A stretch of 64,000 nt of DNA from a virus, in IMG/VR virus record IMGVR_UViG_3300028844_001691, positions 1 through 64,000 of that record; one strand, given 5' to 3'. The notes under the pieces are model-generated. The model made no database searches. It saw only the letters and a list, made by a program, of their open reading frames with translations, and was not told the origin of the DNA. Every line of letters starts with the position of its first letter. Within the stretch, counting starts at the first letter, position 1. Position numbers and translations under genes: made by a program. This document shows positions 21,720-63,977 of this stretch, in pieces.

Positions 21720-22438
21720 TGGATGAAAGTAAATTAGTATTTTTCACAGGTGCCCCTGGAAGTAAATGGAGTGCAGTTGCTCATACTATTGCACAAAGTA
21801 ACAAGTATTTGTTTGATACTGGTGACTATGCTCCTGATAGACAATATGCTCACAGTGTTGATAAAGATATAGTTGCTCATAACGGAGCATACTTTGGTCC
21901 CGGTTTTCCTTTTGGAGATAGTTTTGACAAAGTTGCAAAACTACCTAAAGATGAAGTTTATAGAGAAATTGAAGACGCATGGATAACACAGAACGGCGGA
22001 CTTAAAATTATTAAATGTCATCAGTTTAGTATTGACCTAGCAGATATTCACAGAGAGTTTCCAACAAGTAAAATTATTATTTGTTATAGAAACAATGAAG
22101 CCTGTGAAGATGGTTGGTTTGGTGCTGGTGGTTTTAACATTCCTTATCCACAATATAAAGAAGCATATACCAATCGAGAAACAATGATTAAAAAGATAGC
22201 AGAAGAAAATATGCACAACTTGAAGTTCATTAGAGATGAACAACTAGAAATGCACGTTGCTAATCAAGGACACTTTAAAAATTATTGGGGTGTTGATATT
22301 AACGATAAACTAAATGCTAAATTTGTTAAATTGATTGAAGGTATTCCAATGCATTGGGATAGTAAGTTTTCTGAAACTGTTGCCATAAAGGCAAAAAATG
22401 ATGTTCTTATTTCTACATTAGGATTTAAGGAAAGTTAA
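21719..22438 (+). CDS. P-loop/sulfotransferase-like protein
   Basis: FTGAPGSKWS, KIIKCHQF, GGFNIPYPQY. Confidence 0.6.
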   Translation: MDESKLVFFTGAPGSKWSAVAHTIAQSNKYLFDTGDYAPDRQYAHSVDKDIVAHNGAYFGPGFPFGDSFDKVAKLPKDEVYREIEDAWITQNGGLKIIKCHQFSIDLADIHREFPTSKIIICYRNNEACEDGWFGAGGFNIPYPQYKEAYTNRETMIKKIAEENMHNLKFIRDEQLEMHVANQGHFKNYWGVDINDKLNAKFVKLIEGIPMHWDSKFSETVAIKAKNDVLISTLGFKES

Positions 22439-23089
22439 GACTTTATCAAAGTTAGTCTTATTAAAACTTAATTCAAATTTACTACAAACTTTTTTAAAGT
22501 TTTCTTCAGTGAAAAACTTCTCTGGTTCTGTTATGATAATATCATCTTCAGACACAAATCTACTATAATTATCTATAACTCTTTCCAAGTGTTCTAGCAT
22601 ATGCATATAGTTTCCTTCAAATAAATCATAAAACGTTTTACCTTTTTCTTCAGGGTTAACATAGTACTTGGCACTTGTTTGACAATATCTTGCAAGTAGT
22701 CTAGCCTTGTCTTTTGGTATGATTACTATATGCTTTGCACCTTCAAAGAATGCTTTAGTTTTATCTAAAGGACCATGTAATGCATACATCAAATGCTTGG
22801 GTTGAAACTGCTCAATTGGGCCTTTTAGAGCTTCATATTTGCCCGTATACAGCCCTTGACGTTCTGCCATATCAAGTACAGGGGGAATAGTAAAACCGTC
22901 TTTAAAGCGTCTATTCCAGTGAAATTTAGTAAAGTTAGCATCAATACCAAATAGTTCTTTTTCAACATAAGGTTGCCAAGGATGTTCTCCATTAGCAACG
23001 TTGTTATACCAAACAACATCATCAGAACTAGCAAGTAATCTACCTACTTGGTGTCCTTTTGCTCCCATTGGTGCACTAATTACTATCAT
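22418..23089 (-). CDS. Hypothetical protein, possible P-loop/sulfotransferase-like fold
   Basis: N-terminal ISAPMGAKGHQVGRLL. Confidence 0.55.
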   Translation of the reverse strand: MIVISAPMGAKGHQVGRLLASSDDVVWYNNVANGEHPWQPYVEKELFGIDANFTKFHWNRRFKDGFTIPPVLDMAERQGLYTGKYEALKGPIEQFQPKHLMYALHGPLDKTKAFFEGAKHIVIIPKDKARLLARYCQTSAKYYVNPEEKGKTFYDLFEGNYMHMLEHLERVIDNYSRFVSEDDIIITEPEKFFTEENFKKVCSKFELSFNKTNFDKVLTFLKS

Positions 23090-23808
23090 TTTCTTCCTTC
23101 ATAATATAAAATATTATCTTTAGATACTACTTTATCACCTGTTGCAAACCAATCATTATATACGCATATATCTCCCTTAACAATTAGTTCATTCCATTCA
23201 GATATTTGTACATCACAATAATATCTATCGCCGAGTATTGGCAATGATGCTTCTCCATCCATGCCATGTATGATTTTACTTCTGTATTCTTCTACTTTAT
23301 CTATACTATCAAAAACTGTATTAATAGCACAAGGTCCTATTTCTGTCATTCCCCAATTGGACATAAATGTTGCACCTTTGTTTACAAATGCACTTATAAG
23401 ATGCCACGGTACTCTGTCACTACCGCACGTTACCCAAAGTCCTGTTAAGTCTAAGTCTCTCCAGCCTTTAGTTTTTATTATTGCTTTGCCATGGTCTGGT
23501 GTGATATGCGTATGCGTATACTTCGTAACTTCTCTAACAAATCTATAAGCATTAAAATTTTCTATAACAACTTCTGCACCAACACGAATACCAGGTAAAG
23601 TCTGTGCTAACAAACCACCTGCGTGAGTTGTCTTACATATTGTATAAATTTTAGATTTGCTAGTAATCTTTTGACTATCAATAGCAACTTCATCAGCCGC
23701 TTTTAGTTTAGCAGGAGTTTGCTCGATTACTTTTGGAGTTCCTGTTGTGCCACTTGATTGAATACTAGTACCATTGCTGATAATATTTTGAAGTTCGTCT
23801 AGTTGCAT
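23086..23808 (-). CDS. Minimal AMP-binding (ANL adenylate-forming) protein
   Basis: SSGTTGTPK, NWGMTE, ELIVKG, WFATGD, GRK; only 240 aa. Confidence 0.8.
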   Translation of the reverse strand: MQLDELQNIISNGTSIQSSGTTGTPKVIEQTPAKLKAADEVAIDSQKITSKSKIYTICKTTHAGGLLAQTLPGIRVGAEVVIENFNAYRFVREVTKYTHTHITPDHGKAIIKTKGWRDLDLTGLWVTCGSDRVPWHLISAFVNKGATFMSNWGMTEIGPCAINTVFDSIDKVEEYRSKIIHGMDGEASLPILGDRYYCDVQISEWNELIVKGDICVYNDWFATGDKVVSKDNILYYEGRK

Positions 23809-23812
23809 TTAC

Positions 23813-24139
23813 CTATTCTTTTAACATCTTAGTTTGTTTAACAAACGGAGACTTTGTCTCTTTCTTTTCGTTTATTTTCTTTCTTAAACTATCCCAAGCA
23901 GGGTGTGTAGGAACAAAGTCATATAATTTTTCATCATACTTTAATCTAAGTTCTAATAATTTAAAATCAAATAGCGGTGGGCAAATTGCGTGAAGAATAC
24001 TTGCTATACATAATAACAATAAACTCCATGCTTCTTTTAAACTTACCCATGCGTGTTTGAAATATAGAACAACTGCATTAGTTCCACTATTACCACCATG
24101 TGCTTCGGCTTGTCTAAGGTGTTTCCAATTAAACCACAT
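23813..24139 (-). CDS. DUF6356-like small membrane protein
   Basis: HL...YFKH...LHAICPPLF pattern. Confidence 0.55.
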   Translation of the reverse strand: MWFNWKHLRQAEAHGGNSGTNAVVLYFKHAWVSLKEAWSLLLLCIASILHAICPPLFDFKLLELRLKYDEKLYDFVPTHPAWDSLRKKINEKKETKSPFVKQTKMLKE

Positions 24140-25315: not shown

Positions 25316-25717
25316 CTATAACCTTTCAATCTTGCTCTGTATTACTCCTATAAGATTAGAAAGACCATTACGTCTTTGAGGAGTAACTAGTTGTATAAAT
25401 CCCAGTGGTTGTAAATCTTCAGCAGTTAATTTCATTGCTTCTTCTTTAGTTGACCCAGTAAATATATCACAAATTATTGTTGTGATTCCTTTTGGTATTA
25501 ATGCATCACTATCGTAATATATGTTTATACCATTTTCTTTAAGTCCTACATCAACCCAAATTTTACTTATACAGCCTGGGACTAACCTATCTTCAGTTCG
25601 CAGTTCTTCTGGAAGTGTTGTCGCTCGTCGGGCGAGATCAACTAGATAAGACAGTTTCTCTTGTCCTTCTAAAAGTTGTAAGTCTTCAGCCCATGCATTA
25701 ATCTTTTTTTGTATCAT
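25316..25717 (-). CDS. sufE: Sulfur-acceptor protein SufE
   Basis: VPGCISKIW, DSDALIPKG, TPQRRNGL. Confidence 0.9.
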   Translation of the reverse strand: MIQKKINAWAEDLQLLEGQEKLSYLVDLARRATTLPEELRTEDRLVPGCISKIWVDVGLKENGINIYYDSDALIPKGITTIICDIFTGSTKEEAMKLTAEDLQPLGFIQLVTPQRRNGLSNLIGVIQSKIERL

Positions 25718-26057
25718 CTACTATTGGTCTTTCGAAAAATTCTTCCTCTTGCCAAGTATCATAAAATGGTGCTTGGGTATAATAAGGATCATTGAAGTTT
25801 GGGTCGTCTACACCTATTACACTTTTTACTTCTTTGATATAGTGTTTAAGCATATTCTCAACACCCATTTTAAGTGTCATTGTACTACTTGCACATCCTG
25901 AACAACTTCCGCTCATAAGCATAGTTGCTAGTCCAGTTTCCATATCAAAATCTTCTAGTGATACAGTGCCACCATGTTGTGCAACATTAGGTTGAATGTT
26001 TTGTTCCACTACTTGGTTTATTTCTTTTACTATTTCTTCTTTTGTTCTTTGAGTCAT
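25698..26057 (-). CDS. NifU C-terminal/NfuA-type Fe-S carrier
   Basis: IQPNVAQHGG, MSGSCSGCASSTMTLKMGVE (CxxC); ATG 26057. Confidence 0.9.
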   Translation of the reverse strand: MTQRTKEEIVKEINQVVEQNIQPNVAQHGGTVSLEDFDMETGLATMLMSGSCSGCASSTMTLKMGVENMLKHYIKEVKSVIGVDDPNFNDPYYTQAPFYDTWQEEEFFERPIVDDTKKD

Positions 26058-26208
26058 TTGCTTTGCCTCTGTTTTTAGATGTATTCTCTTTGTGTGGCAC
26101 AGGTTCAGTTGCACCAGTTAGTTTTTTGAGCCTAGTAAATGCATCTTCATCCATGCCTGCGAAAATCCCTCTTGGGTTTCTCGGTTGTTTGTTTTGTTTG
26201 TTTTTCAT
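25987..26208 (-). CDS. Small basic hypothetical protein
   Basis: TAATG coupling to upstream rSAM gene; overlaps the nfu gene by ~70 bp. Confidence 0.5.
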   Translation of the reverse strand: MKNKQNKQPRNPRGIFAGMDEDAFTRLKKLTGATEPVPHKENTSKNRGKANDSKNKRRNSKRNKPSSGTKHST

Positions 26209-27311
26209 TACTTCCTTTTTGGAATCTTACTGTCAGCACTGCTGACACAACTTGGGGAAATACAAGGCATAGGTTTATCAAATAATTTAAACCCTGTCTC
26301 TATATTTCCTAGTGGACTGTCACTGCAACTATAACTTCTCTTAATTGATCCATCGGGTTCTCTTATTATAATTCCTTGGAACCCTGCGTTACATTTCCAG
26401 CCTGTAAATTTGTTAAAATTAAACGCATTAAAGCGTTCTGCTTGATCCATGTACCATTTCTTGCCTTTATTATCTTCAAACTCAACTTGAAAATGTTGTG
26501 GTACTATGCCATTATCTAATTTCATTTCTGGTAAAGGCTTCCAGTTTGGCTTAGGTCTACTTACATATTTATTTTTTTGTTCTGTATAAGCACGTTGTGG
26601 CATATCATTATACAACTTTTGCTTCATTTCTTCTGTATAACCGTCTACTACTCTACTTGCCGTTGGATCACTTTGCGGCTTTAGTGTTACGTTAATATTT
26701 TGATTATGAAAGAACAATGCATTCTCATAATACTCGTCAAACTTTTCAGGTACCATAACCATATTAATTGTTACTTGTACATCATGTTCTTGACATAGTA
26801 TTAACTTATCTGCAAGGTCCTGCATTTTCTCAGGTGTATCAACGTGTTCAACGTGTAAACTACAAGTAATACTAGCACGGTGAAACTTACTTGCATAGTC
26901 GCAGTATGTTTGAAACCATTTCTTATTACGACTACAATTACTAGTCATATGTACACTTGTATAATTTGTGTTGTGTGTATCGTCACTTAAATGTTTAAGT
27001 ATATCTAAATAGCCAGGATGAAATGTTGGTTCACCTCCACTTAAACTAAAATGAAAACTATTGAAACCATTATCTCTTGCTTGTCTTTTGATCTCATCAA
27101 TAGTTCGTAAACATAATTCAGTTGGGCGATGATCTTTTCTATCACTACGAGCATAGGGCCAGCAATAACTACATTTGTAATTACAGAAGCGTCCTAGCAA
27201 CCAACTTACAGTAAATATATCTCTATGAAGTAAAGTACGTTGTCCTACACTGACTATATCGTCATAGGGTATAGCACTAAAATCGTATGCACTTGTTTTT
27301 AAATCACTCAT
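26208..27311 (-). CDS. Radical SAM protein, type C (C-terminal Cys-rich domain)
   Basis: CNYKCSYC, SGGEPT, C-terminal KCNAG...DGSIKRSYSC...LGNI...PCISPSC. Confidence 0.9.
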   Translation of the reverse strand: MSDLKTSAYDFSAIPYDDIVSVGQRTLLHRDIFTVSWLLGRFCNYKCSYCWPYARSDRKDHRPTELCLRTIDEIKRQARDNGFNSFHFSLSGGEPTFHPGYLDILKHLSDDTHNTNYTSVHMTSNCSRNKKWFQTYCDYASKFHRASITCSLHVEHVDTPEKMQDLADKLILCQEHDVQVTINMVMVPEKFDEYYENALFFHNQNINVTLKPQSDPTASRVVDGYTEEMKQKLYNDMPQRAYTEQKNKYVSRPKPNWKPLPEMKLDNGIVPQHFQVEFEDNKGKKWYMDQAERFNAFNFNKFTGWKCNAGFQGIIIREPDGSIKRSYSCSDSPLGNIETGFKLFDKPMPCISPSCVSSADSKIPKRK

Positions 27312-27453
27312 CTTTTATCTTTATATGTTGATAATCTATATACTGTGAACACCACTCATAAAAATGTTTATCTGTATCAGGCCAACACTCGGCAAATACC
27401 GGATCTTTTCTGTGTTCTTTAAACTCTGCTCTTACTTCTTTTTCACTCAGCAT
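27304..27453 (-). CDS. 49-aa peptide MLSEKEVRAEFKEHRKDPVFAECWPDTDKHFYEWCSQYIDYQHIKIKDE (not in ORF track)
   Basis: Fills the gap exactly and overlaps both neighbours. Confidence 0.75.
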   Translation of the reverse strand: MLSEKEVRAEFKEHRKDPVFAECWPDTDKHFYEWCSQYIDYQHIKIKDE

Positions 27454-27796
27454 CTAATCTACTTTTCTTTAAATTCTTAACCAATGCACCATAATTTGTA
27501 TTATGCATTCTACTTTGTTTTGTTGTTTCATAAAATGGTTTGCTACACATTCTTGTACAAGCCGGCATTGGATTATTTGTAAAAGATTGTTCTATCATAT
27601 AACTTGCTTCACTACGATTAATTTCATCTAATGTTCCACTTGTGATATGAAGTTGTTCTAGTTTATCGCCAACTACTTTTTTTAGTTGTAAAAACTCAGG
27701 TTCGCCTGCTACATGACAACAAGGTACAATATATCCATCTACTCTCATAGCAGGTACTTGGTCATCTCTGTGTTTACACTTTGGAAAAATAGTCAT
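27443..27796 (-). CDS. Stand-alone twitch/SPASM-like Fe-S domain
   Basis: PKC...VDGYIVPCC...TLDEI...CTRMC; AAGGA SD. Confidence 0.8.
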   Translation of the reverse strand: MTIFPKCKHRDDQVPAMRVDGYIVPCCHVAGEPEFLQLKKVVGDKLEQLHITSGTLDEINRSEASYMIEQSFTNNPMPACTRMCSKPFYETTKQSRMHNTNYGALVKNLKKSRLDAE

Positions 27797-28499
27797 CAAC
27801 TTCCTTCTGAATAACAGTCCATTCTTTACTTTTTAATTGCATATGTTTTGGTGTTCTACCATCGCCTATAAATATTCGTAAAGTGTGAACATCTTGTTCT
27901 TGTGCAAATTTACACATATCTAAAGTTTGATGATAGTTGTGTTCAAAAATAATATGTCTTAAATCTATTTCTGCATCACTGTTATGATCCAACAAACTTT
28001 GTTTTAAAGTTTTCATTCCCTCAATTATAGTATTCCATTTAGAGTTAACTCTGTAAATAGGATTAGTATCTTCTAATCCGTCTATAGCAAATTCACATCT
28101 GTCTCTGCCTTTTAGCACACTTCCTAAATGATGCCACCATTCTTTAGTGCGTCCACTTCCGTTTGTATGAATATTAATCCACGGACGTTTTTCTAATGTA
28201 TTCAAATGTTCTAATTGTTTTAGAAACACTCCGCTATATATAGGATCACCTAATACTAAACTAAAAGTTAAACGATGAATTTTATTCTCAGGTCTAACCA
28301 AATGTTTAAAGTCTTGTAAACTCATGTCTGTTATATCGTACATAATAGAACTTTCACCTGACTTATACTTTGCCATAATTTTTGTTCTAGCACAACCCGG
28401 ACACATACAATTACATCTTGTAGTTGACTCCACTTGCATCCGTGTACCTTGTTCAAGGTAAACTGAATTATTAAGACCTTCGTAACCTTCTTTAATCAT
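27774..28499 (-). CDS. Radical SAM core, type B, lacking its C-terminal twitch domain
   Basis: CNCMCPGC, HTNGS, FAIDGLEDTNPIYR, FEHN. Confidence 0.88.
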   Translation of the reverse strand: MIKEGYEGLNNSVYLEQGTRMQVESTTRCNCMCPGCARTKIMAKYKSGESSIMYDITDMSLQDFKHLVRPENKIHRLTFSLVLGDPIYSGVFLKQLEHLNTLEKRPWINIHTNGSGRTKEWWHHLGSVLKGRDRCEFAIDGLEDTNPIYRVNSKWNTIIEGMKTLKQSLLDHNSDAEIDLRHIIFEHNYHQTLDMCKFAQEQDVHTLRIFIGDGRTPKHMQLKSKEWTVIQKEVDDYFSKV

Positions 28500-29814
28500 T
28501 AAACAAATCTTTATATCTTGGTGCTACATCTAATATATTTTGACCTCTTGCTTTGTCTAAATACTTTGTAAACTTAACAAACGAATCTATTTCATTAGAA
28601 TAGTCTTCTGATTTACAATATTGTAACACACTGTCTAGTATTTTGCAAGCCTTTTCTGATTGTAGTTCAGTAAATTCACCTTCATAAATCTTCTTCCATC
28701 CATTATAAAACGTCTCTAAATCTTCCTTTAATTTAGGAGTTAATAATCTAATATTAGCACGTTTAGGTCCGTGTGCTACATGGTGTGTGATCACTGGTCT
28801 CTTTTTTGTACTGTTTATTTTTTTCCAGCCACTGCCGGCAACTTTCCATTGCATAAACTCTGGTAAGTGCCATATGTTATTAACTGTAACAGTAAAGGCA
28901 ACCCAAGCCATAATGTTTTTATTCTCTTGACAGAATAAATCCAACTTGTCTAGGTTCTTTTTTGCTTGTTCCCATTTAATTGGATAACGCTGATATTCTA
29001 AAACTTTACCAAACCCGTCAATACTAGCACCAACTCTAACTTGTTTAAATGACTTCCAATATTCTAAAACTTTGTCTGGTAATGTTGTCATATTAGTATT
29101 GTATTCAAGTATAATGTTTTTAGCAACATCTTTCTTAACACACTTCTCTAAAAACTCATAATGGCGTTCAATCATCATAGGTTCGCCACCTGCCATATAA
29201 ACGTGTTGTATTTTATCTAAATTCTTTTCTATATTGTTCCAAAAACTAGTAGAGCCATGCCAATTATAATCGTTAGTTTCTAATCTACCTTTAGCATTAC
29301 GATTAAGTTTAACATAACCGTGTGTATCTTGGAATCCTTCTTCTTTATGATAGTCAGTCCATTGTTCATACCAACTATGACTATCTGTTGGTCCACACAT
29401 ACGACACTGCAAATTACATAAGTTACCAAATCTTAAATCATAATAAACAACAGGTGCATCTTCAGTATTAATGCTTCCATCTTCTTTTGTAACTCGTTGT
29501 GCTTCTTTAAAATCAAAATCCCATTCAGATAATTCGTATTGACGTCTACTATTAAGTCCTACTTGTTCTTCTTGTTGACATCTTGTACATTCATCACTCC
29601 AAACACCGTTAAGCATATTCTTTCTAACAGTTTTCATTAGTTCTGCATTACGAGCCTGTGCCATACTATGCTTACCTGCATTATAAGGACTACCATCTTT
29701 ATGTCTAACAACTCCTTGGTTCTTAGTCACATTGGCTTGACAACAGATTCGAATGTCTCCGTTATTTCTAACTGCTTGGAAGTTCCAAGGTATAGGGCAA
29801 AATGTTTTACTCAT
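28492..29814 (-). CDS. N-terminal twitch radical SAM protein (type A)
   Basis: CPIPW...ICC...CTRC; CNLQCRMC; AGGEP; SIDG. Confidence 0.92.
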   Translation of the reverse strand: MSKTFCPIPWNFQAVRNNGDIRICCQANVTKNQGVVRHKDGSPYNAGKHSMAQARNAELMKTVRKNMLNGVWSDECTRCQQEEQVGLNSRRQYELSEWDFDFKEAQRVTKEDGSINTEDAPVVYYDLRFGNLCNLQCRMCGPTDSHSWYEQWTDYHKEEGFQDTHGYVKLNRNAKGRLETNDYNWHGSTSFWNNIEKNLDKIQHVYMAGGEPMMIERHYEFLEKCVKKDVAKNIILEYNTNMTTLPDKVLEYWKSFKQVRVGASIDGFGKVLEYQRYPIKWEQAKKNLDKLDLFCQENKNIMAWVAFTVTVNNIWHLPEFMQWKVAGSGWKKINSTKKRPVITHHVAHGPKRANIRLLTPKLKEDLETFYNGWKKIYEGEFTELQSEKACKILDSVLQYCKSEDYSNEIDSFVKFTKYLDKARGQNILDVAPRYKDLFND

Positions 29815-32516: not shown

Positions 32517-33232
32517 TATTTTTTAACTGTCTTAAATATATCTGTTAACGGCGGATAGCCATAAACATTGTCTACATTATTTGGTATATAAGGTATTCGT
32601 TGTTCTTTTCCTGTTCTAGGATCGTCATAATTGTATTTTACACCTGGATCTTTTCCATATCCAACACCCATAATAATTACAAATCTCATTGCACGTTCGT
32701 CTTCATCTAGTTTAAATACTTTTGATGCATATTCGTAATCACTACAAATGTTTTGACATATACCTGTTTGTATTCCTCTGTTTGCTAGAGCATACATAAG
32801 TGTTACTGCCGCAATACCTACTTCAATGTTTTCAGTTTGTGTTTGTGCAACATCACTATGTTTTTTACCAGTTCCTTTACCGTCTAAATAAGCACGTGAA
32901 GTAGACTTGTCAAACATTCCTTCTCTGTCTGCAACCCATCTACTACAAAAGCCTATTAGCCAAGGTGCCAACACTTGTGGATTACCTCTGTCATTTTCTA
33001 ATTCATCAGGCCCCCATTCGCCATTACGTTGACAAATAGTCATAATGTTTTTTCTTATTTCTGGATCATCATTACGCAACAGTTTTACTTGATATGGAAA
33101 TTGTCTATTTTTTGAAGGTATGTGTTCTAATACTTCAGCAAATACATCATATAATTCTTCTTCAGTTGGTATTTTATCTTCTCTCCACGCAAAAGTTGTA
33201 TGTCTTGCGTTAATTAAATCAAGCCATTCCAT
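32516..33232 (-). CDS. Nitroreductase-family protein
   Basis: RHTTFAW, PSKNRQFPY, NPQVLAP, EVGIA, GVGY. Confidence 0.7.
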   Translation of the reverse strand: MEWLDLINARHTTFAWREDKIPTEEELYDVFAEVLEHIPSKNRQFPYQVKLLRNDDPEIRKNIMTICQRNGEWGPDELENDRGNPQVLAPWLIGFCSRWVADREGMFDKSTSRAYLDGKGTGKKHSDVAQTQTENIEVGIAAVTLMYALANRGIQTGICQNICSDYEYASKVFKLDEDERAMRFVIIMGVGYGKDPGVKYNYDDPRTGKEQRIPYIPNNVDNVYGYPPLTDIFKTVKK

Positions 33233-41573: not shown

Positions 41574-41589
41574 ACGATTGCTTATTATT

Positions 41590-41617
41590 AGTATACACTC
41601 TTTTGGGCCTTTGTCAA
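41590..41617 (-). promoter_or_regulatory. Sigma70-like promoter for the rSAM gene 40365..41573
   Basis: TTGACA-N16-TATACT on minus strand. Confidence 0.65.
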
Positions 41618-42752: not shown

Positions 42753-42761
42753 AAATTTTTG

Positions 42762-55782: not shown

Positions 55783-56786
55783 TAAGCTCGTCTCTCCAAG
55801 TCTAACGTGGCACAATGATGACCTCCACCTAGTGTACGACTATGTGTTAGTTGTACAGGTATAACTTCAAACTTTGCACGTTCTAATTTTTTAATTAATT
55901 TTGGTTGTCTAGGATCTACAATAACTGTTTTAGGATCTACACTTAAAACATTCATACCAATCCAATTACTTGCATAAGGATAATTATGAAACTCCATATC
56001 CTCTACACTGTCTACCCAAATACGTTTATGCTTCTTTAAAAATTTCGGTAATTGTGAAGGTTTAACTCTTTGTTTGTTAATTAACAATGTCGATTCATTC
56101 AACGCACATATTGTACTGTCGATGTGTGCATAAGCATAAACATCTTCCCATATGTGAACTGTATACTCAGACCCGAGTACTGTACTTAACCAAGCCGCTC
56201 CAGCCGAATTACCTGTTTGACTTTTTAAGTATAACAAGTCATTGCCAAAACGTAAAACGTTTGCGGCATCAAATATAGGAGTCTTTTCTGTAAGTTTACC
56301 ATTTTCAAATACTTCGTGTACTGGTAATGCATGACGTGGAGCACTAATCCATTTAACACCAGACTTCATTGCTTCGTGTCTAATATCTCTATATGCTTCT
56401 GTTTCGTGAAACCTACTATGAAACAATACAGGAGTTTCAATTACTGTATTGCCTACTACAAGTATAACATCTCTTGGACAATAATTATAAAACCCATCTG
56501 CAAAGTATCTATATCCATGTACTGTTTGTTGAAAGTCTAATTGTCTTGGACGTAAAACTTCGACGCCTAAATCTGTTAATACTTTTTCAAATTGTCGTAG
56601 TTCATGGTCTGTTAAATCTAATATGTCTTTACTAATTGGTCCAACTGGTTGTGCAGATTCAGTCCACTTGCTATGTTTAGCAACTTCATTAAAGACATCA
56701 TCATACTTTGGAAATCTTGCACCGTGAACATCTCCTAATACAACTCTTTTTAATGGATCCCATTCATTGTGCGATTCAATAATCAT
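55782..56786 (-). CDS. Amidinotransferase (StrB1/glycine amidinotransferase family)
   Basis: NEWDPLK, YCPRD, FDAAN, AHIDST, GGGHHCATLD. Confidence 0.93.
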   Translation of the reverse strand: MIIESHNEWDPLKRVVLGDVHGARFPKYDDVFNEVAKHSKWTESAQPVGPISKDILDLTDHELRQFEKVLTDLGVEVLRPRQLDFQQTVHGYRYFADGFYNYCPRDVILVVGNTVIETPVLFHSRFHETEAYRDIRHEAMKSGVKWISAPRHALPVHEVFENGKLTEKTPIFDAANVLRFGNDLLYLKSQTGNSAGAAWLSTVLGSEYTVHIWEDVYAYAHIDSTICALNESTLLINKQRVKPSQLPKFLKKHKRIWVDSVEDMEFHNYPYASNWIGMNVLSVDPKTVIVDPRQPKLIKKLERAKFEVIPVQLTHSRTLGGGHHCATLDLERRA

Positions 56787-57481
56787 TTCGTGTTTCCTAT
56801 TTTAAAACATTTTGTAATACTTGGATACTTCACGTGTTGTGGCATTTTTTCTTTATACTGATCCAACTTAACTATACCAACTGCCGATTGTTCTGGCGAC
56901 AGATAGTAATGATATCCAATTTCTTCATATTGCTCTTTATCCCAAGGAGACACTTTTAGGTCTCTACCATCGTACCTAGAGCGAATAATCCAATCATATG
57001 CTTCTCTATTATCTAATAGTATAGCACCGCCTTTGCCAATTGTCAATGGTTTTCCATTGCCAAAGCTCAAGCATTTGAACGTTTCTGCTTCATACATATT
57101 ACGTTGTAATCTTCTAGCACTGTCAAATATAGGTAATTGTCCTAATTTATATTCGCCAATCCATTTATCTTCATTGATATTAAAAGATAAATCTAAACGT
57201 TTAAGCATCATAGGAATACTTAAATATGTTTGATCAGGTATATCAATATGTGGAACACGATTTGGGTGTTTTCTTTTATACCACCTTATACATAATTCGA
57301 TTGCGTGTGTGCAACAATCAGTTGTTATCACATATGGTGCTCCAGTATAATCAGCAAGACGTTTTTCAAATTCGCTTATAACATCATACGGATCATTCCA
57401 ACTAACACCATAATCTTTTAACATCTCTAGGATGTCAAGATTAATAATGTCCTGTAATTTGTAAGGTGTATCTTGGTTCAT
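56783..57481 (-). CDS. Compact DegT/DnrJ/EryC1/StrS-family aminotransferase (start uncertain)
   Basis: FEKRLA, CCTHAI, IFDSA, LSFGNGKPL...GKGG. Confidence 0.82.
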   Translation of the reverse strand: MNQDTPYKLQDIINLDILEMLKDYGVSWNDPYDVISEFEKRLADYTGAPYVITTDCCTHAIELCIRWYKRKHPNRVPHIDIPDQTYLSIPMMLKRLDLSFNINEDKWIGEYKLGQLPIFDSARRLQRNMYEAETFKCLSFGNGKPLTIGKGGAILLDNREAYDWIIRSRYDGRDLKVSPWDKEQYEEIGYHYYLSPEQSAVGIVKLDQYKEKMPQHVKYPSITKCFKIGNTK

Positions 57482-57965
57482 AACCTATATTGCCTGCACT
57501 GTGTGGAACTCTTCCACGCCAAAGCACGGCTCCTCCTTTGTGCCAATTCATACTATATTGGTCTACTTCAAACATATGTCCTTGTTTTTTATCTTCTAAA
57601 AATACTAAACAACGTAACACATCATCACTACTTTCGATATGAAAGAGTTCTTTATATTTGTTATAGTGATCTGCGTGTGGTGGTAGTATGTCACCTGTTG
57701 TCATTTTATAGAATGTATAACCACAGTCTTTCCATTCTAAAATTTTTCCAATGTCTTTTGCCCATTGCGGAATTGCTGACTGATCATTAAACATCATACC
57801 AGTAAAGTTATCATGTGTATGTCCAGCAGTTCTCCATTTTGCTAATTGCTCTAAGTCTCCGTAGGCAACTCGTTTATAATCAAAACTTTCAAAGTCTTTT
57901 GTTTCCCATACAGGATCAAGTTCCAGTGTATGATATTCTAAAGGACTAATCTCTTGTGTTGCCAT
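57441..57965 (-). CDS. 2OG-Fe(II) oxygenase
   Basis: LPPHAD...PHSAGNIG..PRYTLQITG. Confidence 0.75.
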   Translation of the reverse strand: MATQEISPLEYHTLELDPVWETKDFESFDYKRVAYGDLEQLAKWRTAGHTHDNFTGMMFNDQSAIPQWAKDIGKILEWKDCGYTFYKMTTGDILPPHADHYNKYKELFHIESSDDVLRCLVFLEDKKQGHMFEVDQYSMNWHKGGAVLWRGRVPHSAGNIGYEPRYTLQITGHY

Positions 57966-59094
57966 AATGTATTACTTTCACTTTTGGATCTTTGGCTGTG
58001 TATGTACGCCATGGATCGAAAACTATTGTTGCACTGTCGACATTAAAGTTATGGTCAGTTGGGTGAGTTATAACCATAACTTCAACTGCATGGTCGAAAC
58101 CATTAACAATCATTCCACCCAACTTTCCAATATAGTGTTGAACTAGTAATGCATAAGATCCATCAGTGTATGCTACTCCTGGCTTATATGTATCACTCGT
58201 AAAGCAAATTTGCTTTCCATGTTTTAATATTTCTTTTGCCATACGTTCGGCTTGTACTTCTCTACTTTTGGCAATCGCGTCGAACAAGTCATATCCTAAG
58301 TCTAATCGTTCCGCTAAATGTCTTAGGGCAATATTATCTCTAGGGTGACAAGGTCCACCGTCGCCCATGCCTGCTTTCATATAAGCGGCACTGGTTATTC
58401 GGTATCCTGCATTACTTAAACTATTTGTTACAACATCAACATTCATATTCCCAACACTTTGGGCAACGTCTTGAATCATATTAACTAGACTTAACCTTGC
58501 ACTAATAAATGTGTTGTAAAATATTTTTGTTGCTTCTGCTTCTTCCCATGTACCAATATTATAATGCGGATCATTCTCCATTACTGTTTTGTAAAATTTT
58601 ACTAATGCTTTTGCATCAGTGTCGTTTGGTTTGTTGCCTCCAATGATAACCATATCTGGATTTACCATATCCCAAGCAACTGTACCCATAGCAATTAAGT
58701 ATGGGTTATAAATTAATCTTGCTTTATCTAATAAGCCTGCGAATTCTCTTCTTGTTGTTCCTGGAAGTACTGTACTAATCAAAACAACAATAGTATCTTC
58801 TGTTGCGTATTTGTTAATTTCTTTTAAACATTCTTTAACAGGATCTAAACCAAAGTCTTTGTTTGGTAAATGTGTTATAGGAGTTTCTCCACCATAGTCT
58901 TTATGGTGTGGAGTTTGTACTGCAACAAAGACAAAGTCCTGTCCTACTACTGCTTCTTTTGGTGTCTTAGACACTCGTACAAGCCCACTAAAGCGTTCTT
59001 CTTTGTCATACCCTGTAACTGTATGTCCTTTTTTAACTAGCATCTCAGAACTAATCATTCCAAGTTTTCCTAAACCAAACCAGCCTATTTTCAT
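57946..59094 (-). CDS. UDP-glucose/GDP-mannose dehydrogenase-family protein
   Basis: GLGKLG, AVQTP, STVLPGT, KIFYN, GDGGPCHPRD. Confidence 0.9.
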   Translation of the reverse strand: MKIGWFGLGKLGMISSEMLVKKGHTVTGYDKEERFSGLVRVSKTPKEAVVGQDFVFVAVQTPHHKDYGGETPITHLPNKDFGLDPVKECLKEINKYATEDTIVVLISTVLPGTTRREFAGLLDKARLIYNPYLIAMGTVAWDMVNPDMVIIGGNKPNDTDAKALVKFYKTVMENDPHYNIGTWEEAEATKIFYNTFISARLSLVNMIQDVAQSVGNMNVDVVTNSLSNAGYRITSAAYMKAGMGDGGPCHPRDNIALRHLAERLDLGYDLFDAIAKSREVQAERMAKEILKHGKQICFTSDTYKPGVAYTDGSYALLVQHYIGKLGGMIVNGFDHAVEVMVITHPTDHNFNVDSATIVFDPWRTYTAKDPKVKVIHYGNTRD

Positions 59095-60296
59095 AATTCT
59101 AATACCTTTGTGATATGTTTTCTAATCTCACCTGTTCTAATTAAGTTGCGATTGTGTATAAGGATTGGTCTCATATGTTTCTTTATTGTTTCTAATTCTT
59201 TATATGATTGATTACTAATGTCGATAATAATATCAAATACTTTATCCATTCTTTTAATAGGATCAACTTCCTCATCGTAACTTTCATCCCAAAACTCGTG
59301 GAATGTTTTTGCTCCCCAATGCTTTAACAAGTCTAAACTATGTACACCTGCTAACAATAATACAGGTGAACCTTGCTTCATAGGGTTTAATGTTTTTTCA
59401 CTTATTTGTCCCCAGGGGTATTCGTAATTTGTTTCACATACCAGACTAGCAAACGAGTTCCAATAAGTATCTTCTAACGGATCAGAAGTAGTAATATTAT
59501 TTATGGCTCCTACTTGTGGGCTCATATAATCTTTCATGCTTACTACTTGACATTCAGTATCTTCTTTTGTTAACGGTAAATGAGTCATAAGGTCTTTACA
59601 ACCTTTGCTATAAGATTCAAAATGTTTACTGTTGTTTAATGGAAATTTTAAAAGTACATCATCTGTTTTATGATAATGCGTAATAACACTGTCCTTTGGC
59701 ATTGTGTTATATAAGAAACTAACAGCCGCGTGTCTATGCTGATCCCAGCGATATGTAAAACAGTTTATTTTATGATTAATTTCTTCTGGTAGACCATTGC
59801 TAGGTTCTCTGTTATAATGACAAGCACCTAAACTAAAAGTGTCTAATGGGTAAATTGCCCAGTCGGAATACTTTGTGTTTTGTAATTGCTCTAACATACG
59901 ATACTCATTTGTAAATATTTTAAACTTACAGTTGTGTTTATTACACCAGTTTTGTATCATATCGAATTCATTGATGCTACAATCTTCTTGTATTAACCCG
60001 TCTGGGCAACTATACCTGGAGTGATTTTGCCATACTGATAATACTTCGTACAAAAAGAAATATACTGTCGTATGGTCTACAAAGTTAATACTTGAATCTG
60101 ACCAAGATTCGAACCATTCACACGGACCGTCAAATATAAAATAAGGGGTTTTGATTTCTAAACTTTGGAGTGATTCTGCTGTTTTTCGAAATCTTCCACG
60201 TGTGTCACTAAATTTAGTGATGGTTGACGTTGCATCAACTACAGAGTGGTTTATTGCTTTGTTAATATTATTTATGTAAATTGAGTTAAATTGCAT
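59091..60296 (-). CDS. Hypothetical protein with glycosyltransferase-like C-terminus
   Basis: Y..SF.SLVCET...ISEKT..P...WDESYD motif, reminiscent of the GT10-type donor-binding region. Confidence 0.5.
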   Translation of the reverse strand: MQFNSIYINNINKAINHSVVDATSTITKFSDTRGRFRKTAESLQSLEIKTPYFIFDGPCEWFESWSDSSINFVDHTTVYFFLYEVLSVWQNHSRYSCPDGLIQEDCSINEFDMIQNWCNKHNCKFKIFTNEYRMLEQLQNTKYSDWAIYPLDTFSLGACHYNREPSNGLPEEINHKINCFTYRWDQHRHAAVSFLYNTMPKDSVITHYHKTDDVLLKFPLNNSKHFESYSKGCKDLMTHLPLTKEDTECQVVSMKDYMSPQVGAINNITTSDPLEDTYWNSFASLVCETNYEYPWGQISEKTLNPMKQGSPVLLLAGVHSLDLLKHWGAKTFHEFWDESYDEEVDPIKRMDKVFDIIIDISNQSYKELETIKKHMRPILIHNRNLIRTGEIRKHITKVLEL

Positions 60297-61644
60297 CGAA
60301 CCAAGCCATATATTCGGGAAAAACTTCGCTAAAAATGGTACTTCTACGTTTATCGAGCTCTTTAGTATATACTTTAAAGTTCTGCTTATGATTATTACTA
60401 TCTACTGTTTGTTGACTTCTCCAGTATTCAATAATACGTTCTAGTTTAGCAGTTTCACTATTATGCATTAACTCTACAATTTCCATCTGTTTCATATACT
60501 CAACTGTATTAGTCATGTATTCTTCAAATGTTTTATCTAGTATTTTAACATCCATCATCTCAGGATATCTTAAAAAAGGTATGTCAATGTACATACAATC
60601 TCTACCGTATTGTTTTCTTATTTCAACTAAATCTTTTAGGAAGTCTTTGAATGATGTTACACTTAATGCATTGTAGGTACACATGAATGTAACTACAAAC
60701 CTGTCTTCATTTTTAAATTCTTCTAATACACGTTTTACATTTTTTATAAACTTGTTATAATCTAAACCATTTCTAATATACTCTGCTTTATTACCAAATG
60801 CTTCTGCACTTGTGTAAACTTCTAGTTTACGAACTTTGCCACTTGCTAATACTTTCTTTGCTTGATTAATAAACTTATCGAATAGTTTGTCCTCAACACA
60901 AAAGTTACTATTAATACCTAACAGTAAATCTTTATTTGGTTTATCTGTTTCAATGATCCAGTCCATCATTTTAAATGTGTTCTTGTTCATAAGTGGCTCG
61001 CCACCTGTAACACGGAACGTATGCAATGCTGGATACAACTCAGGCCACCATTCCCAAAATGCTTCTACATATGGATTGTGTTCTCTTTCTGGTATAGGCA
61101 TTCTGCCTCTACGTTCTGTCCATGTTATGTCGTTGTAATTATCTGAAGTGCTAAAGCCTCCATGTTGTTTTACTTCTTGCATCCACGCACTACTAATAGC
61201 AGGACTACAATACATACATTTAAAATTACAAGCATAACCAAAACTTACTTCTACATAACTTGGTTGAAAGTTTGTACTCCAATCATTATTTTTAATTGTA
61301 TCAAAGTGTTTGTTACTCCAACTAAATGCACTCTTTAAATGTCTGTCACTTAAAGCATTTGGATCTGCATCTTCAACTCTCCAACAGTAGTCACATTCTT
61401 TAGGTCTACCACCTTCAAGCATTTCTTTACGTTGTTGTTTTTTATATATAGAGTTGTGTAATGAACTAGGGTCTAGTTTAATTTCGTCAACTGGTACTTG
61501 GTGTACCGGTGGGTGATGACAACTATGTGCAGTTCCATTTTGTAAGTTAAGTGTAAGTTGTGTCCACTTTGCTAAACAGAATCCAGGACCTACTGCATTC
61601 AGTTTGGCTTTCATTTCATGCGGATCTGTTCCGGTAAAACTCAT
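60286..61644 (-). CDS. N-terminal twitch radical SAM protein (type A variant)
   Basis: CLAKW...SCHH...CDYC; CNFKCMYC; TGGEP. Confidence 0.92.
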   Translation of the reverse strand: MSFTGTDPHEMKAKLNAVGPGFCLAKWTQLTLNLQNGTAHSCHHPPVHQVPVDEIKLDPSSLHNSIYKKQQRKEMLEGGRPKECDYCWRVEDADPNALSDRHLKSAFSWSNKHFDTIKNNDWSTNFQPSYVEVSFGYACNFKCMYCSPAISSAWMQEVKQHGGFSTSDNYNDITWTERRGRMPIPEREHNPYVEAFWEWWPELYPALHTFRVTGGEPLMNKNTFKMMDWIIETDKPNKDLLLGINSNFCVEDKLFDKFINQAKKVLASGKVRKLEVYTSAEAFGNKAEYIRNGLDYNKFIKNVKRVLEEFKNEDRFVVTFMCTYNALSVTSFKDFLKDLVEIRKQYGRDCMYIDIPFLRYPEMMDVKILDKTFEEYMTNTVEYMKQMEIVELMHNSETAKLERIIEYWRSQQTVDSNNHKQNFKVYTKELDKRRSTIFSEVFPEYMAWFDAI

Positions 61645-62348
61645 TACGAATAATCTTCTTTAAGTATATCCCAAGTATCATAAGGCCCTTTGACTTGATG
61701 CCATTTATCTCCAGGGTTTGTCATTTTGTCTGCTAATGGTTTATCGTTTCCATTAATGTGAATTCTGTCTCCAAAGAATATCATTGGTGTTCCAATAATA
61801 TCATATACTTGTGCTTTGTTCTTTCCTTTTAGATGAATATCTATACTAGTGTTACCACCTAGTTCTGCTTCAAAGCCTGGGAAAGTTTCGTTAAACATTT
61901 CACAAATACTAACACGTTCATTATTTACTTTGTCCCATTCATAATAATCATCACGTTGTTGCCCTACGGCATTTCTTCCTACAGTACTAAAGTTTATTAA
62001 CCCTGTACGTTTTTCAATATGAAGTCCATACTTGTGTTTATATTTACTGAAGTCTACTTGTTGTTCTAACCATGTGTCCATATCTTCTGGAGCATTAAGG
62101 TTACTACTCGAAACTTCAATACCATTACGCCATACACTGTTACCTGCACATTGAAATACCATTGTACAGTTGTCTACGATCTCGTGTCCTATTTGTTCTA
62201 TTGTTTTAGGTCTATCACTACCTGTAACAATAAAGACACTTTTGTTTTTCATCCAGTTTAAGAACCAGAGTCTAAAGTCAACAGGAATTACTTGCCTACT
62301 TTCAGACAAGGTTCCATCTACGTCAAATACATAATTTACACGGTCCAA
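61644..62348 (-). CDS. HAD-IIB phosphomannomutase-like enzyme
   Basis: FDVDGTL, VTGSD, INFSTVGR, GGNTSIDI, FFGD...GND. Confidence 0.88.
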   Translation of the reverse strand: MDRVNYVFDVDGTLSESRQVIPVDFRLWFLNWMKNKSVFIVTGSDRPKTIEQIGHEIVDNCTMVFQCAGNSVWRNGIEVSSSNLNAPEDMDTWLEQQVDFSKYKHKYGLHIEKRTGLINFSTVGRNAVGQQRDDYYEWDKVNNERVSICEMFNETFPGFEAELGGNTSIDIHLKGKNKAQVYDIIGTPMIFFGDRIHINGNDKPLADKMTNPGDKWHQVKGPYDTWDILKEDYS

Positions 62349-62497
62349 CTTTTCAACTGCTCCTTTGTTGGTTTCATTGGTTCAAGTTTTTCTATCTTAC
62401 CACCCTTCTCTAAAAACTTTTTCATTCGTTCATCTAGTTTTCTTTGAAGTTCAGCAGGTTCTGGTTTTGTATAATCTTTTTGTTTATTATCTATCAT
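62336..62497 (-). CDS. 53-aa protein with SutA-like motif (not in ORF track)
   Basis: MIDNKQKDYTKPEPAELQRKLDERMKKFLEKGGKIEKLEPMKPTKEQLKSWTV; ATGA overlap with RLP stop. Confidence 0.75.
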   Translation of the reverse strand: MIDNKQKDYTKPEPAELQRKLDERMKKFLEKGGKIEKLEPMKPTKEQLKSWTV

Positions 62498-63630
62498 TGT
62501 GTTACACTGTCTATTGCTTTTCTTAATTTTAATGCTCCGGCTTTCATACCGTCTGGGTGTTCGTGAATTGCTCCACCAACATTTGCCATATAGTCAACAC
62601 CAAAGCGTCTTGTTATTTCTGGAATAAGTTCTGCTGTCATGCCACAACTTAAAGCAGGCACTACATTGTTTCCACTTAACATATGCATTGTGCTTCGAAG
62701 TTCATTTTCATCATCACTTAAATATCCGCCCCACATACCTGTATGGATTGTATCCACTCCACAGATACTTGCTAACTTACATAACACATACCAACTAATA
62801 CGATATGCATTCTTTGTACTGCTTATTACTTTGTCGCCTGACTTCTGATAATGTATATACAAAGGTAAGTTTAATTTGTTAATACTCTTATAAGATCCGT
62901 GCCCACTCCAGAAGTTAACGTGTACTCCATTACCTCCGCCATCTGCAACCATTTTGGCTCTATCTAGCAAGTACAAAGGATCACTATTAATACAATAGCA
63001 ATACACAACGTTTGTTCCTGCTAACACCCGCTGTATGACGTCTATGCGAGTCTTAAGGGGTAAACAAGCCGGGTTTGCCATTATCTCATCTTCTTTGATA
63101 AAGTCAACTCCGCCTTCTACAAATGCAGTAACAATTTCGACTAATGCTTGTTCTGTTAGTCCTGTCTTGGGTTTAACAATACTACCTAGCAATGGCTTGT
63201 TGTAATTGCCTGTAAGTTTTCTAAATCCTGATAATCCGTAACGTGGTGCAACTGCATCACATAATGAAAAATCGATATCTAAATCTAATAGTTCACATCT
63301 GTGAATATAATCGATGTCCATTTGTCCACCCATTAACACACAAAGTAATTGTGCTATTCCATCAGTTTCCCAGTCAATAATTCTATAGGGCCAAGCAATT
63401 TTAACTATGCCTGTGTTCTTTCCTATAAAGTCTGCTGGCTTTCCAATAATCTTTGCTGAGTATTGTTCAATCAACTCTGGTGTTTCATATTCATTTCTTA
63501 CACTAGGGTTACCTACACTTTGCCCGACTGCTAATCCAAATGCCGCCTTGTTTAAGTCGTTACCTTCTAGTTTGTATGTTACTGTAAAGTATTCCTTGGG
63601 ATCTACTTCACTCACGTATATATCAAGCAT
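62494..63630 (-). CDS. RuBisCO-like protein (form IV)
   Basis: KPKTGL, GVDFIKEDE, PALSCG, GGAIHEHPDG; IHYQK and GGYL replace bona fide RuBisCO residues. Confidence 0.88.
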   Translation of the reverse strand: MLDIYVSEVDPKEYFTVTYKLEGNDLNKAAFGLAVGQSVGNPSVRNEYETPELIEQYSAKIIGKPADFIGKNTGIVKIAWPYRIIDWETDGIAQLLCVLMGGQMDIDYIHRCELLDLDIDFSLCDAVAPRYGLSGFRKLTGNYNKPLLGSIVKPKTGLTEQALVEIVTAFVEGGVDFIKEDEIMANPACLPLKTRIDVIQRVLAGTNVVYCYCINSDPLYLLDRAKMVADGGGNGVHVNFWSGHGSYKSINKLNLPLYIHYQKSGDKVISSTKNAYRISWYVLCKLASICGVDTIHTGMWGGYLSDDENELRSTMHMLSGNNVVPALSCGMTAELIPEITRRFGVDYMANVGGAIHEHPDGMKAGALKLRKAIDSVTQ

Positions 63631-63647
63631 AATGTATTGTACCTTCT

Positions 63648-63977
63648 TTATTCTTTAATGTCAAACATATATTTGTCATCTGTGTCACAAATATCTCTAA
63701 CTACTGTTAATTCTACATCGGTTAAGTATTCAACTTGACTAACTTCATATGGGTATAATATAAAAATGTCGCCTTCGCTAAATATTTCTCCGTTAATTTT
63801 TACTTTTCCTTTTCGCATACAGTTGATCTCTGTACCTTTTTTATGAAAGTGATCCTGATGGAATTCACCTTTTTTGTGTCTGTGAATACCAACTTCAAAG
63901 TTTGCCTTAAAAGCCGTAGGTTCAAAGTTACCTACAAACCATCCACCTTTCATATCATCTAATTTAAATTTCTTCAT
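63648..63977 (-). CDS. Cupin-fold protein
   Basis: GGWFVGNFEP, HFH...E...GDIF. Confidence 0.75.
   Translation of the reverse strand: MKKFKLDDMKGGWFVGNFEPTAFKANFEVGIHRHKKGEFHQDHFHKKGTEINCMRKGKVKINGEIFSEGDIFILYPYEVSQVEYLTDVELTVVRDICDTDDKYMFDIKE

Follow-up and report, generated by a model that had tools for sequence, protein, structure and literature searches.

Sixteen radical SAM genes in a recurrent giant-phage island: a candidate cytoplasmic pathway for the editing of sugars

The DNA studied here, referred to as the window, is the first 64 kb (64,000 nucleotides) of the linear IMG/VR virus record IMGVR_UViG_3300028844_001691, which is 78,996 bp long. Between positions 22418 and 63977 its minus strand carries 16 radical S-adenosylmethionine (radical SAM) genes together with genes for sugar enzymes and transferases, and Fe-S assembly genes lie at the low-coordinate end. 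With its Fe-S kit, this island is a large example of a recurrent, unexplained phage island and not a one-off. The reading that we prefer, at a probability of roughly 55 per cent, is that the island encodes a cytoplasmic phage pathway in which unusual activated sugars would be made, edited by radical chemistry and transferred to an acceptor.

Results

The 16 radical SAM genes

A motif scan of every minus-strand open reading frame (ORF) in 22418-63977 detected CxxxCxxC in exactly 16 genes; the motif was absent from all other ORFs, both in the island and in the contig past the window. Their number, strand and positions are those given in a first-pass annotation of the window, and the three architectures that it distinguished (ten type A genes, five type B, one type C) are present with all the motifs that it quoted. 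In the profile search that it had proposed as a check, Pfam Radical_SAM (PF04055) matched all 16 proteins, 11 of them above the gathering score of 29.5 bits. Among the five below that score, four pass the full-length NCBIfam model NF033640, and the remaining one, 38454, could be aligned with its type B counterparts. On these matches the 16 proteins are classed as radical SAM superfamily members, and cleavage of SAM is predicted for them.

All ten type A proteins matched NF033640 (N_Twi_rSAM, 'twitch domain-containing radical SAM protein') over its full length (model positions ~1-397) with 226-425 bits, the curated cut-off being 170 bits; the type B and type C proteins, with 27-47 bits, are not members. 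The type A paralogs are only 20-25% identical to one another, and all of them keep four N-terminal cysteines (C..C(C)..CxxC), CxxxCxxC, GGE and Y-x-R. Across 61 sequences three of the N-terminal cysteines are invariant and one is nearly so; the C-terminal D-x-x-R of type A is retained in at least 90%. SPASM matches were found at the N-termini of type A proteins, two of them above the Pfam cut-off, and the N-terminal domain matched the twitch domain of BtrN in a profile comparison (E 1.3e-4). BtrN is the founding twitch enzyme and, like DesII and BlsE, acts on sugars. The best PDB sequence match of type A was TigE (8vpo). In Foldseek comparisons the type A model (pLDDT 90) was placed with SPASM/twitch enzymes, the sugar-acting BlsE and DesII among them, and it matched peptide enzymes (SkfB, CteB, SuiB, anSME) and enzymes acting on small molecules or sugars (MoaA, BlsE, DesII, viperin) about equally. 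The radical SAM fold alone does not decide between a peptide and a sugar substrate.

The highest NF033640 score (425 bits) was obtained with the 471-aa protein of 43729-45144, a conserved core ortholog that is at least 45% identical in 37 compared loci and whose model has a pLDDT of 90. Its neighbor 45137-46348 (403 aa) had the lowest score (226 bits) and an N-terminal SPASM match of 26.9 bits, above the cut-off. Nearest to the low-coordinate end is 28492-29814 (440 aa, 365 bits, full length), with CNLQCRMC at residue 133, followed by 29807-31315 (502 aa, 336 bits; matched by Radical_SAM, N-terminal SPASM just under the Pfam cut-off), 31287-32516 (409 aa, 263 bits) and 33219-34547 (442 aa, 243 bits). 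The last of these has an 82% identical ortholog in locus L060, with a ratio of nonsynonymous to synonymous substitution rates (dN/dS) of 0.08. The 434-aa protein of 37166-38470 (360 bits, dN/dS 0.14) has relatives that are two-module fusions of ~1400 aa. The remaining type A genes are 40365-41573 (402 aa, 257 bits), the first gene after a promoter-like gap, 50391-51569 (392 aa, 233 bits) and 60286-61644 (452 aa, 326 bits).

In type B the core comes first, G(N/T)xxD(P) replaces GGE, and F-x-(I/V)-D-G is followed by L-x-D-T-N-x-x-Y-R and by a Cys-rich C-terminal domain, where the pattern C...PCC...C...C is conserved and Pfam SPASM matched below its cut-off (20.4 and 18.2 bits). The 361-aa protein of 47237-48322 is a conserved core ortholog, at least 45% identical in 29 loci. 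That of 34486-35559 (357 aa) has an 89% identical ortholog in L060 (dN/dS 0.07) and is 26-27% identical to radical SAM proteins of Campylobacter phage CP220. The 525-aa protein of 38454-40031 (dN/dS 0.14) has a long insert and a tail; its Radical_SAM match is below the cut-off and it was assigned by alignment with type B. The protein of 53081-54268 (395 aa) has a Radical_SAM match of 44.9 bits and a C-terminal SPASM match just under the cut-off. The C-terminal domain ascribed to all type B genes in the first-pass annotation is present in these four and missing from the fifth: 27774-28499 consists of the core only (Radical_SAM 30.9 bits, aligned with type B cores), and the Cys-rich domain is found in a separate, overlapping ORF in another frame, 27443-27799, which has a weak SPASM match and aligns with the PCC...C...C region of the other type B proteins. 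The gene is therefore split, which a frameshift, a sequencing error or an enzyme made in two pieces could explain. Type C, the third architecture, is represented by the single gene 26208-27311 (367 aa, Radical_SAM 51.9 bits, dN/dS 0.11), a conserved core ortholog that is at least 45% identical in 28 loci, at best 80%.

Recurrence, turnover and selection

At least 586 related stretches were found when IMG/VR was scanned with a pattern. The 80 loci kept from it contain 1-10 type A genes per 20 kb, often accompanied by types B and C. The 43729 ortholog has 3,061 relatives in public metagenomes, and the 120 that were listed are 64-98% identical, on contigs of up to 346 kb. When 1.8 billion representative proteins were searched in full with a profile, 9,042 type A clusters (50% identity) were obtained at E ≤ 1e-30. 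In 84 loci (83 fetched and this contig), 323 type A proteins formed 104 clusters at 40% identity. Type A modules were also found as two-module fusions of ~800 to 1,400 aa.

The recurrent core of these loci consists of type C 26208, type A 43729, type B 47237, a GT-A-fold protein and the partner of the latter (see below), and the remaining genes turn over. Surface-glycan islands show this combination of conserved frame and variable cassettes. For genes shared with the nearest relatives, dN/dS was 0.07-0.15, with high dS. Neutral decay, which would give values near 1, had been raised as a possible objection to the array; the values found show that the island genes are under purifying selection and are not decaying. 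The paralogs are old, diverged and intact.

In the bacteria sampled the family was rare, at about 1 genome in 100: 2 of 400 Pseudomonadota and 4 of 400 Bacteroidota genomes contained it, with G001 and G002, which served as queries, left out of the count. The type A array was absent from the cultured phages searched, in which only weak matches were seen (Ralstonia phage RsoM2USA, Vibrio phages K566 and K567), and type C had no match at all in cultured phages. The first-pass annotation knew of no characterised pathway for such an array. This is true of the chemistry: no published characterisation of NF033640 chemistry, or of radical SAM enzymes in O-antigen loci, was found in the literature searched. 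The array itself is neither unique nor unrecorded, since NF033640 is a curated family, at least 80 other IMG/VR contigs have related loci, phages CP220 and S-SCSM2R have smaller modules, and radical SAM cassettes have been noted in a published study (PMC7029224; see the last section).

Bacterial relatives in glycan loci

On a bacterial chromosomal contig that also carries dnaE and accA (GC 54%), four tandem N_Twi_rSAM genes are bordered on one side by rmlC/rmlD/wzm and on the other by genes for two methyltransferases, one of them a TylF-type O-methyltransferase, and for a WbsX glycosyltransferase. The first of the four is part of an 854-aa frame (L098:8579-11143; genome G106, contig C19), in which Wzt (ABC_tran and Wzt_C) is fused in frame to a complete N_Twi_rSAM. 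In a second bacterial genome N_Twi_rSAM is located beside a GT2 glycosyltransferase and a sugar epimerase/dehydratase, and in a third the array is inside a 75-kb stretch that contains 9 of the 24 GT2 matches of the genome. Elsewhere, relatives occur as fusions with class I methyltransferase domains and with TPR repeats, and in one relative PF06722 is present, which we take to be an EryCIII-like glycosyltransferase domain. These bacterial loci are the strongest independent clue to function.

The GT-A-fold family and its partner

The 52419-53081 gene (minus strand), found in 48 loci, has a D-G-D motif and is a paralog of the contig gene 71225-72160, which is located past the window (hhalign probability 100%). 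The structure model of 71225, with a pLDDT of 89, shows a GT-A fold. Its best Foldseek matches were all glycosyltransferases (TarP, SunS, TarS, BcsA), and its VIA match to B4GALNT1 had a Z of 10.4 over 141 residues with an rmsd of 3.1. Among 17 relatives of 71225, D65 and D67 of V-D-G-D-N are invariant, and D-G-D is also conserved in the 52419 group (compared by sequence position only). The proteins were not assigned to a known glycosyltransferase family, as neither a Pfam match nor a PDB sequence match with the profile was obtained; a language-model lead for the family pointed to GT2 (0.87-0.88). On the strength of the model, the 52419/71225 family is assigned to the GT-A (nucleotide-diphospho-sugar transferase) fold.

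The partner gene, 51556-52422 (minus strand), encodes a putative, weakly methyltransferase-like protein. Its consensus contains a Gly-rich GGWYG, and two relatives match Methyltransf_25 weakly. In the phage loci L057 and L081 this family is fused to the GT-A family.

Sugar, transferase and Fe-S genes beside the array

The first-pass annotation described the radical SAM genes as interleaved with oxygenases, nitroreductases, transferases and Fe-S genes. Transferases and Fe-S genes are indeed present, and sugar enzymes as well. The nitroreductases came down to one sub-threshold Pfam match, and the oxygenases to a cupin and one protein resembling an annotated 2-oxoglutarate (2OG) oxygenase. Unless stated otherwise, the genes described in this section are on the minus strand and the assignments were made with Pfam.

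At the high-coordinate end of the window are genes for a phosphomannomutase-type HAD enzyme (61644-62348; PMM 3e-20) and for a RuBisCO-like protein (62494-63630; RuBisCO_large 1.3e-33). The latter lies in the sugar part of the island, adjoins a small ORF (63648-63977) and has a 59% identical copy in one related locus. A member of the UDP-glucose/GDP-mannose dehydrogenase family (57946-59094; N-terminal and central domains) is followed towards lower coordinates by a small protein similar to the annotated 2OG-Fe(II) oxygenase SSCSM2R_308 of cyanophage S-SCSM2R (57441-57965; 26% identity, E 4e-21), a short aminotransferase of the DegT/AHBA-synthase type (56783-57481; DegT 2e-17, 37% identical to SSCSM2R_305), an amidinotransferase of the StrB1 type (55782-56786; E 1e-83, full length over residues 2-332, to the inosamine-phosphate amidinotransferase 1bwd) and a carbamoyltransferase (54268-55815; Carbam_trans_N 6e-40, Carbam_trans_C 2e-52). 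A second group comprises a short UDP-glucose dehydrogenase-like protein without the C-terminal domain (49224-49985; likely true start MKITIAGYGYVGKA), the cupin (48886-49227; Cupin_2) and a cytidylyltransferase-like nucleotidyltransferase (48315-48746; CTP_transf_like 1e-14).

The low-coordinate end of the island is flanked by genes for an Nfu-type Fe-S carrier (25698-26114; NifU 1e-21), a SufE sulfur acceptor (25316-25717; SufE 1e-27) and, beside the island on the plus strand, an IscU Fe-S scaffold (21300-21719; NifU_N 2e-51). A fragment of an AMP-binding (adenylating) domain is encoded at 23086-23808 (AMP-binding 3e-12, partial). The 328-aa protein of 36225-37211 is the partner of a type A enzyme; in locus L074 the two kinds of module form a fusion. 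It has matches in 18 loci, and no Pfam or PDB sequence match was found for it. Between the dehydrogenase and the type A gene 60286, ORF 59091-60296 encodes a 401-aa protein with 10 cysteines and without CxxxCxxC, for which neither Pfam nor a PDB sequence search gave a match and none of the 83 compared loci contained a relative. PDB sequence searches likewise returned nothing for 57441 or for the profile of the methyltransferase-like family. Past the window, at 64222-68901 of the contig (L089:2222-6901), three DUF6071 proteins, one with a weak GDSL/SGNH-like match, surround an NDP-sugar (nucleoside diphosphate sugar) nucleotidyltransferase (NTP_transferase); two paralogs, one with a weak mannosyltransferase match, are also located past the window.

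Layout of the island

About 33 of 42 gene junctions overlap or abut, as judged from ORF coordinates with longest-ORF starts. The description of the array as one mostly coupled run of ~41 kb is correct as to the coupling and requires revision in two respects: the run is broken at 41574-43041, and the island continues beyond the window to ~79 kb of the contig, to a total of ~57 kb. The break is a 1.47-kb gap without a minus-strand ORF of at least 60 aa. On the minus strand it contains an 11/12 consensus promoter, TTGACA-16-TATACT, at 41617-41590, which faces gene 40365; on the plus strand it contains a 12/12 sigma-70 consensus with an extended -10 element at 41652-41680, a second promoter (11/12) at 41757-41784, and two small ORFs (41818-42069 and 42295-42552). 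These divergent consensus promoters would split the island into at least two units, the promoter count over the whole scanned region being no higher than in shuffled sequences.

A hydropathy scan detected essentially no membrane proteins among the ORFs of at least 80 aa in the ~57-kb island. This absence of membrane enzymes suggests that the product is assembled in the cytoplasm. Structural-type genes in the flank are represented by one tail-fibre PHROG match and one weak Ig-like match.

The contig and its viral backbone

The contig is coded on the plus strand from 1 to 22.4 kb and almost entirely on the minus strand from 22.4 kb to its end. Judged from its sequence, the backbone resembles that of jumbo phages of the PA5oct/Phosso type, and the contig derives from an uncultured marine giant phage. 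A plus-strand ATPase is 49% identical to that of jumbo phage PA5oct and its partner is 44% identical to proteins of PA5oct and of Sinorhizobium phage Phosso, the backbone identities spanning 43-49%; further plus-strand PHROG matches were an exonuclease, a thymidylate synthase and a tail fibre protein. Since the record is a virus record of IMG/VR and has a jumbo-phage backbone, a cellular origin of the contig, raised earlier as a possible objection, can be set aside. CheckV estimated the completeness of the record at 22%, which corresponds to a genome of roughly 350 kb.

Matches to five 'bacterial' metagenome-assembled genomes (MAGs) in five phyla do not speak for a cellular origin. Mis-binned phage DNA is likely, because the marine MAG contig G001:C3 (108 kb, GC 35%, labelled Gammaproteobacteria) is syntenic with our contig over backbone and island, and in the other four MAGs most copies are on one or two contigs. 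In G001:C3 the island frame follows the backbone genes just as it does here; it retains the core and the flanks on either side, and the cassettes differ. Marine metagenomes from no fewer than six studies, dated 2017-2024, contain DNA nearly identical to 43700-53100 (87-98% of sampled words), which shows that the phage population is persistent. In four marine metatranscriptome libraries, short contigs, mostly 95-100% identical, tile the island; they do not show transcription, because they are assembled contigs and the libraries may contain DNA.

Some plus-strand genes were noted in passing. The ATPase and its 435-aa partner (14323-17136), the latter labelled variously as hydrolase or HNH endonuclease, form a pair kept in ~800 phage records, with the nearest relatives in jumbo phages of the PA5oct and Phosso/Atu_ph07 types. 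A 1028-aa protein (52-3138) with a central subtilisin-like protease domain is related to proteases of large Bacillus phages. At 6301-7759, QueD (PTPS family) is encoded beside a QueE-like radical SAM protein; the two represent part of the 7-deazaguanine precursor pathway, of the kind used by phages for DNA modification. Among the plus-strand ORFs scanned, no QueC, FolE or transglycosylase was recognised, and the window contained no tRNAs or Rfam families.

Discussion

The glycan context of the bacterial relatives, the sugar enzymes of the island and its GT-A-fold proteins together lead us to propose that sugars are edited by radical chemistry and transferred to an acceptor. The phosphomannomutase and the nucleotidyltransferases would supply NDP-sugars, to which the dehydrogenases, the aminotransferase, the StrB1-type amidinotransferase and the carbamoyltransferase would add acid, amino, guanidino and carbamoyl groups. 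Each of the 16 radical SAM enzymes would then abstract a hydrogen from a sugar carbon, with the auxiliary [4Fe-4S] cluster of the twitch domain handling the electron. The likely outcomes would be those known from BtrN, DesII and BlsE, namely oxidation, deamination or decarboxylation, and perhaps also epimerisation, deoxygenation or C-C bond formation. GT-A-fold proteins, paired with their methyltransferase-like partners, would attach the products, and IscU, SufE and Nfu would supply the many clusters needed. The most likely outcome would be a coat of strongly edited sugars. The gene families, the GT-A fold, the conserved core with its variable cassettes and the glycan surroundings of the bacterial relatives were observed, and from them we infer the sugar substrates, the reaction of each enzyme and the acceptor. 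Of the targets offered in the first-pass annotation, glycans fit best, and nothing found points to DNA bases. As acceptors, virion proteins near the tail fibres seem the likeliest, then a host envelope glycan, possibly a host lipid-linked glycan made by host enzymes, and then a free product.

Several observations weigh against radical editing of sugars. The sugar substrate is deduced from context only, because no characterised member of NF033640 was found in the literature searched. The closest solved folds in the Foldseek comparison are those of the peptide-modifying SkfB, CteB, SuiB and anSME, with modest E-values. The GT-A call is by fold, one that nucleotidyltransferases also have, and the VIA list includes some of them. 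In two of the six bacterial loci checked (G688 and G711) no GT2 or GT4 was found near the radical SAM genes. Without a membrane protein the island has no flippase, polymerase or polyprenol-phosphate transferase, and alone it cannot build an exported polysaccharide. Finally, many island proteins are still without assignment.

A competing reading is that the radical SAM enzymes modify proteins or peptides, for example by cross-linking, epimerising or oxidising structural proteins of the virion or a ribosomal peptide, and that the sugar genes form a separate, neighbouring pathway. Most characterised SPASM/twitch enzymes act on peptides, the best structural and PDB sequence matches (SkfB, CteB, SuiB, anSME; TigE, 8vpo) are of this kind, and the island adjoins the structural-type genes mentioned above. 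We nevertheless regard this as unlikely. No conserved precursor-like small ORF was seen beside the radical SAM genes, the small conserved ORFs being antisense shadows of real genes. Neither a precursor gene for a ribosomally synthesised and post-translationally modified peptide nor an RRE domain was seen in the ORF lists or alignments, no dedicated RRE search having been made. The twitch domain occupies the N-terminus, which is the usual site of peptide-recognition domains; the fusions and bacterial neighbours (Wzt, Rml, WbsX, methyltransferases) are glycan-related and not peptide-related; and GT-A and radical SAM genes are interleaved in a conserved order.

The same gene content could be read as a pathway for a free small molecule, aminoglycoside- or nucleoside-like with guanidino and carbamoyl groups, directed against competitors or serving to reprogram the host. 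The StrB1-type amidinotransferase, the DegT-type aminotransferase and the carbamoyltransferase would suit such a product, twitch radical SAM enzymes take part in the butirosin (BtrN) and blasticidin (BlsE) pathways, and genes for membrane-linked assembly are missing. Moreover, the homologous trio of phage S-SCSM2R was read by its authors as antibiotic synthesis genes (PMC12801897); that trio, however, sits among five glycosyltransferases. No exporter or self-resistance gene was recognised, the bacterial context is one of O-antigen export, and the extreme turnover of cassettes (104 clusters in 84 loci), together with the tail-fibre-type neighbours, fits a surface structure better. We consider a free product of this kind improbable. 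Hypermodification of the phage DNA, for instance by edited sugars placed on bases, appears very unlikely indeed. Glycosylation of DNA by GT-A-type enzymes is known from phages (Pyle et al., preprint 10.1101/2023.12.21.572611), and 7-deazaguanine precursor genes, QueD and QueE-like, are present on the contig; the two genes are, however, 15 kb away on the other strand, and the bacterial relatives are in O-antigen loci. No base-hydroxymethylase, transferase of the DNA glycosylase type (DpdA/TGT) or 5-methylcytosine oxygenase was recognised, with many proteins unassigned and not every plus-strand ORF scanned, and the thymidylate synthase looks ThyX-like, as judged only from its size and PHROG match.

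Returning to radical editing of sugars, a wider proposal can be made, which we hold tentatively and at clearly less than even odds. N_Twi_rSAM might be a large toolkit for radical carbohydrate editing, in which each of thousands of subfamilies would make a different sugar change. By shuffling cassettes, marine giant phages would produce an ever-changing glycan on the virion or on the surface of the infected cell, much as O-antigen loci do, through C-H chemistry not yet described for polysaccharides.

Should sugar editing by these enzymes prove right, it would open a new field of radical carbohydrate chemistry and would account for much of the 'dark' hypervariable region in abundant ocean phages, with roles in host recognition, virion shielding or the blocking of superinfection. 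The type A family is very large, rare in the bacteria sampled and common on marine phage contigs, and no characterised member was found. The three Fe-S assembly genes beside the array point to a heavy demand for clusters during infection of hosts in oxygenated surface water, a puzzle in its own right. Practical entry points are the cultured phages CP220 and S-SCSM2R, which have a smaller module, and the one bacterial genome with the Wzt-fused array, whose position in an O-antigen locus makes it a natural starting point for the chemistry of the family.

Comparison with known systems

The hypervariable host recognition cluster of pelagimyophages resembles the island in combining a conserved frame with variable cassettes. 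Zaragoza-Solas et al. (2020) noted radical SAM cassettes in these clusters and proposed modification of the host O-chain (PMC7029224). Pelagimyophages are T4-like, their clusters average ~45 kb and their radical SAM genes were not analysed, whereas the present contig has a jumbo backbone of the PA5oct/Phosso type. Campylobacter phage CP220 (and also F379) shares with the island a single-strand operon with type-B-like radical SAM proteins (24-29% identical), an amidinotransferase (26%) and two proteins with NDP-sugar-transferase domains. It differs in having five or six radical SAM genes, all of them outside type A. What the window has in addition are Fe-S supply genes and a larger set of sugar-nucleotide enzymes. 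In Synechococcus phage S-SCSM2R, a homologous trio of DegT aminotransferase, 2OG oxygenase and amidinotransferase (37%, 26% and 35% identity) is accompanied by five annotated glycosyltransferases and by one radical SAM gene, compared with 16 here.

Outside phages, a parallel is offered by the chain-end modification and Wzt-dependent export of O-antigens through the ABC-transporter pathway: in one bacterial chromosome an N_Twi_rSAM is fused to Wzt with its carbohydrate-binding Wzt_C and lies beside Wzm, RmlC/D and methyltransferases; the phage island, in contrast, is without Wzm, Wzt or another membrane protein. With BtrN, DesII and BlsE the type A enzymes share the radical SAM core. BtrN has one auxiliary cluster domain, and its twitch region aligns with the type A N-terminus; the identity is very low, the twitch domain is C-terminal in BtrN and N-terminal here, and the activity of type A is a prediction. 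A further counterpart is NF033640 itself, with which all ten type A proteins share the N-terminal four-Cys twitch domain, CxxxCxxC and GGE: a family that had been catalogued only is represented here by ten diverged paralogs in one virus.

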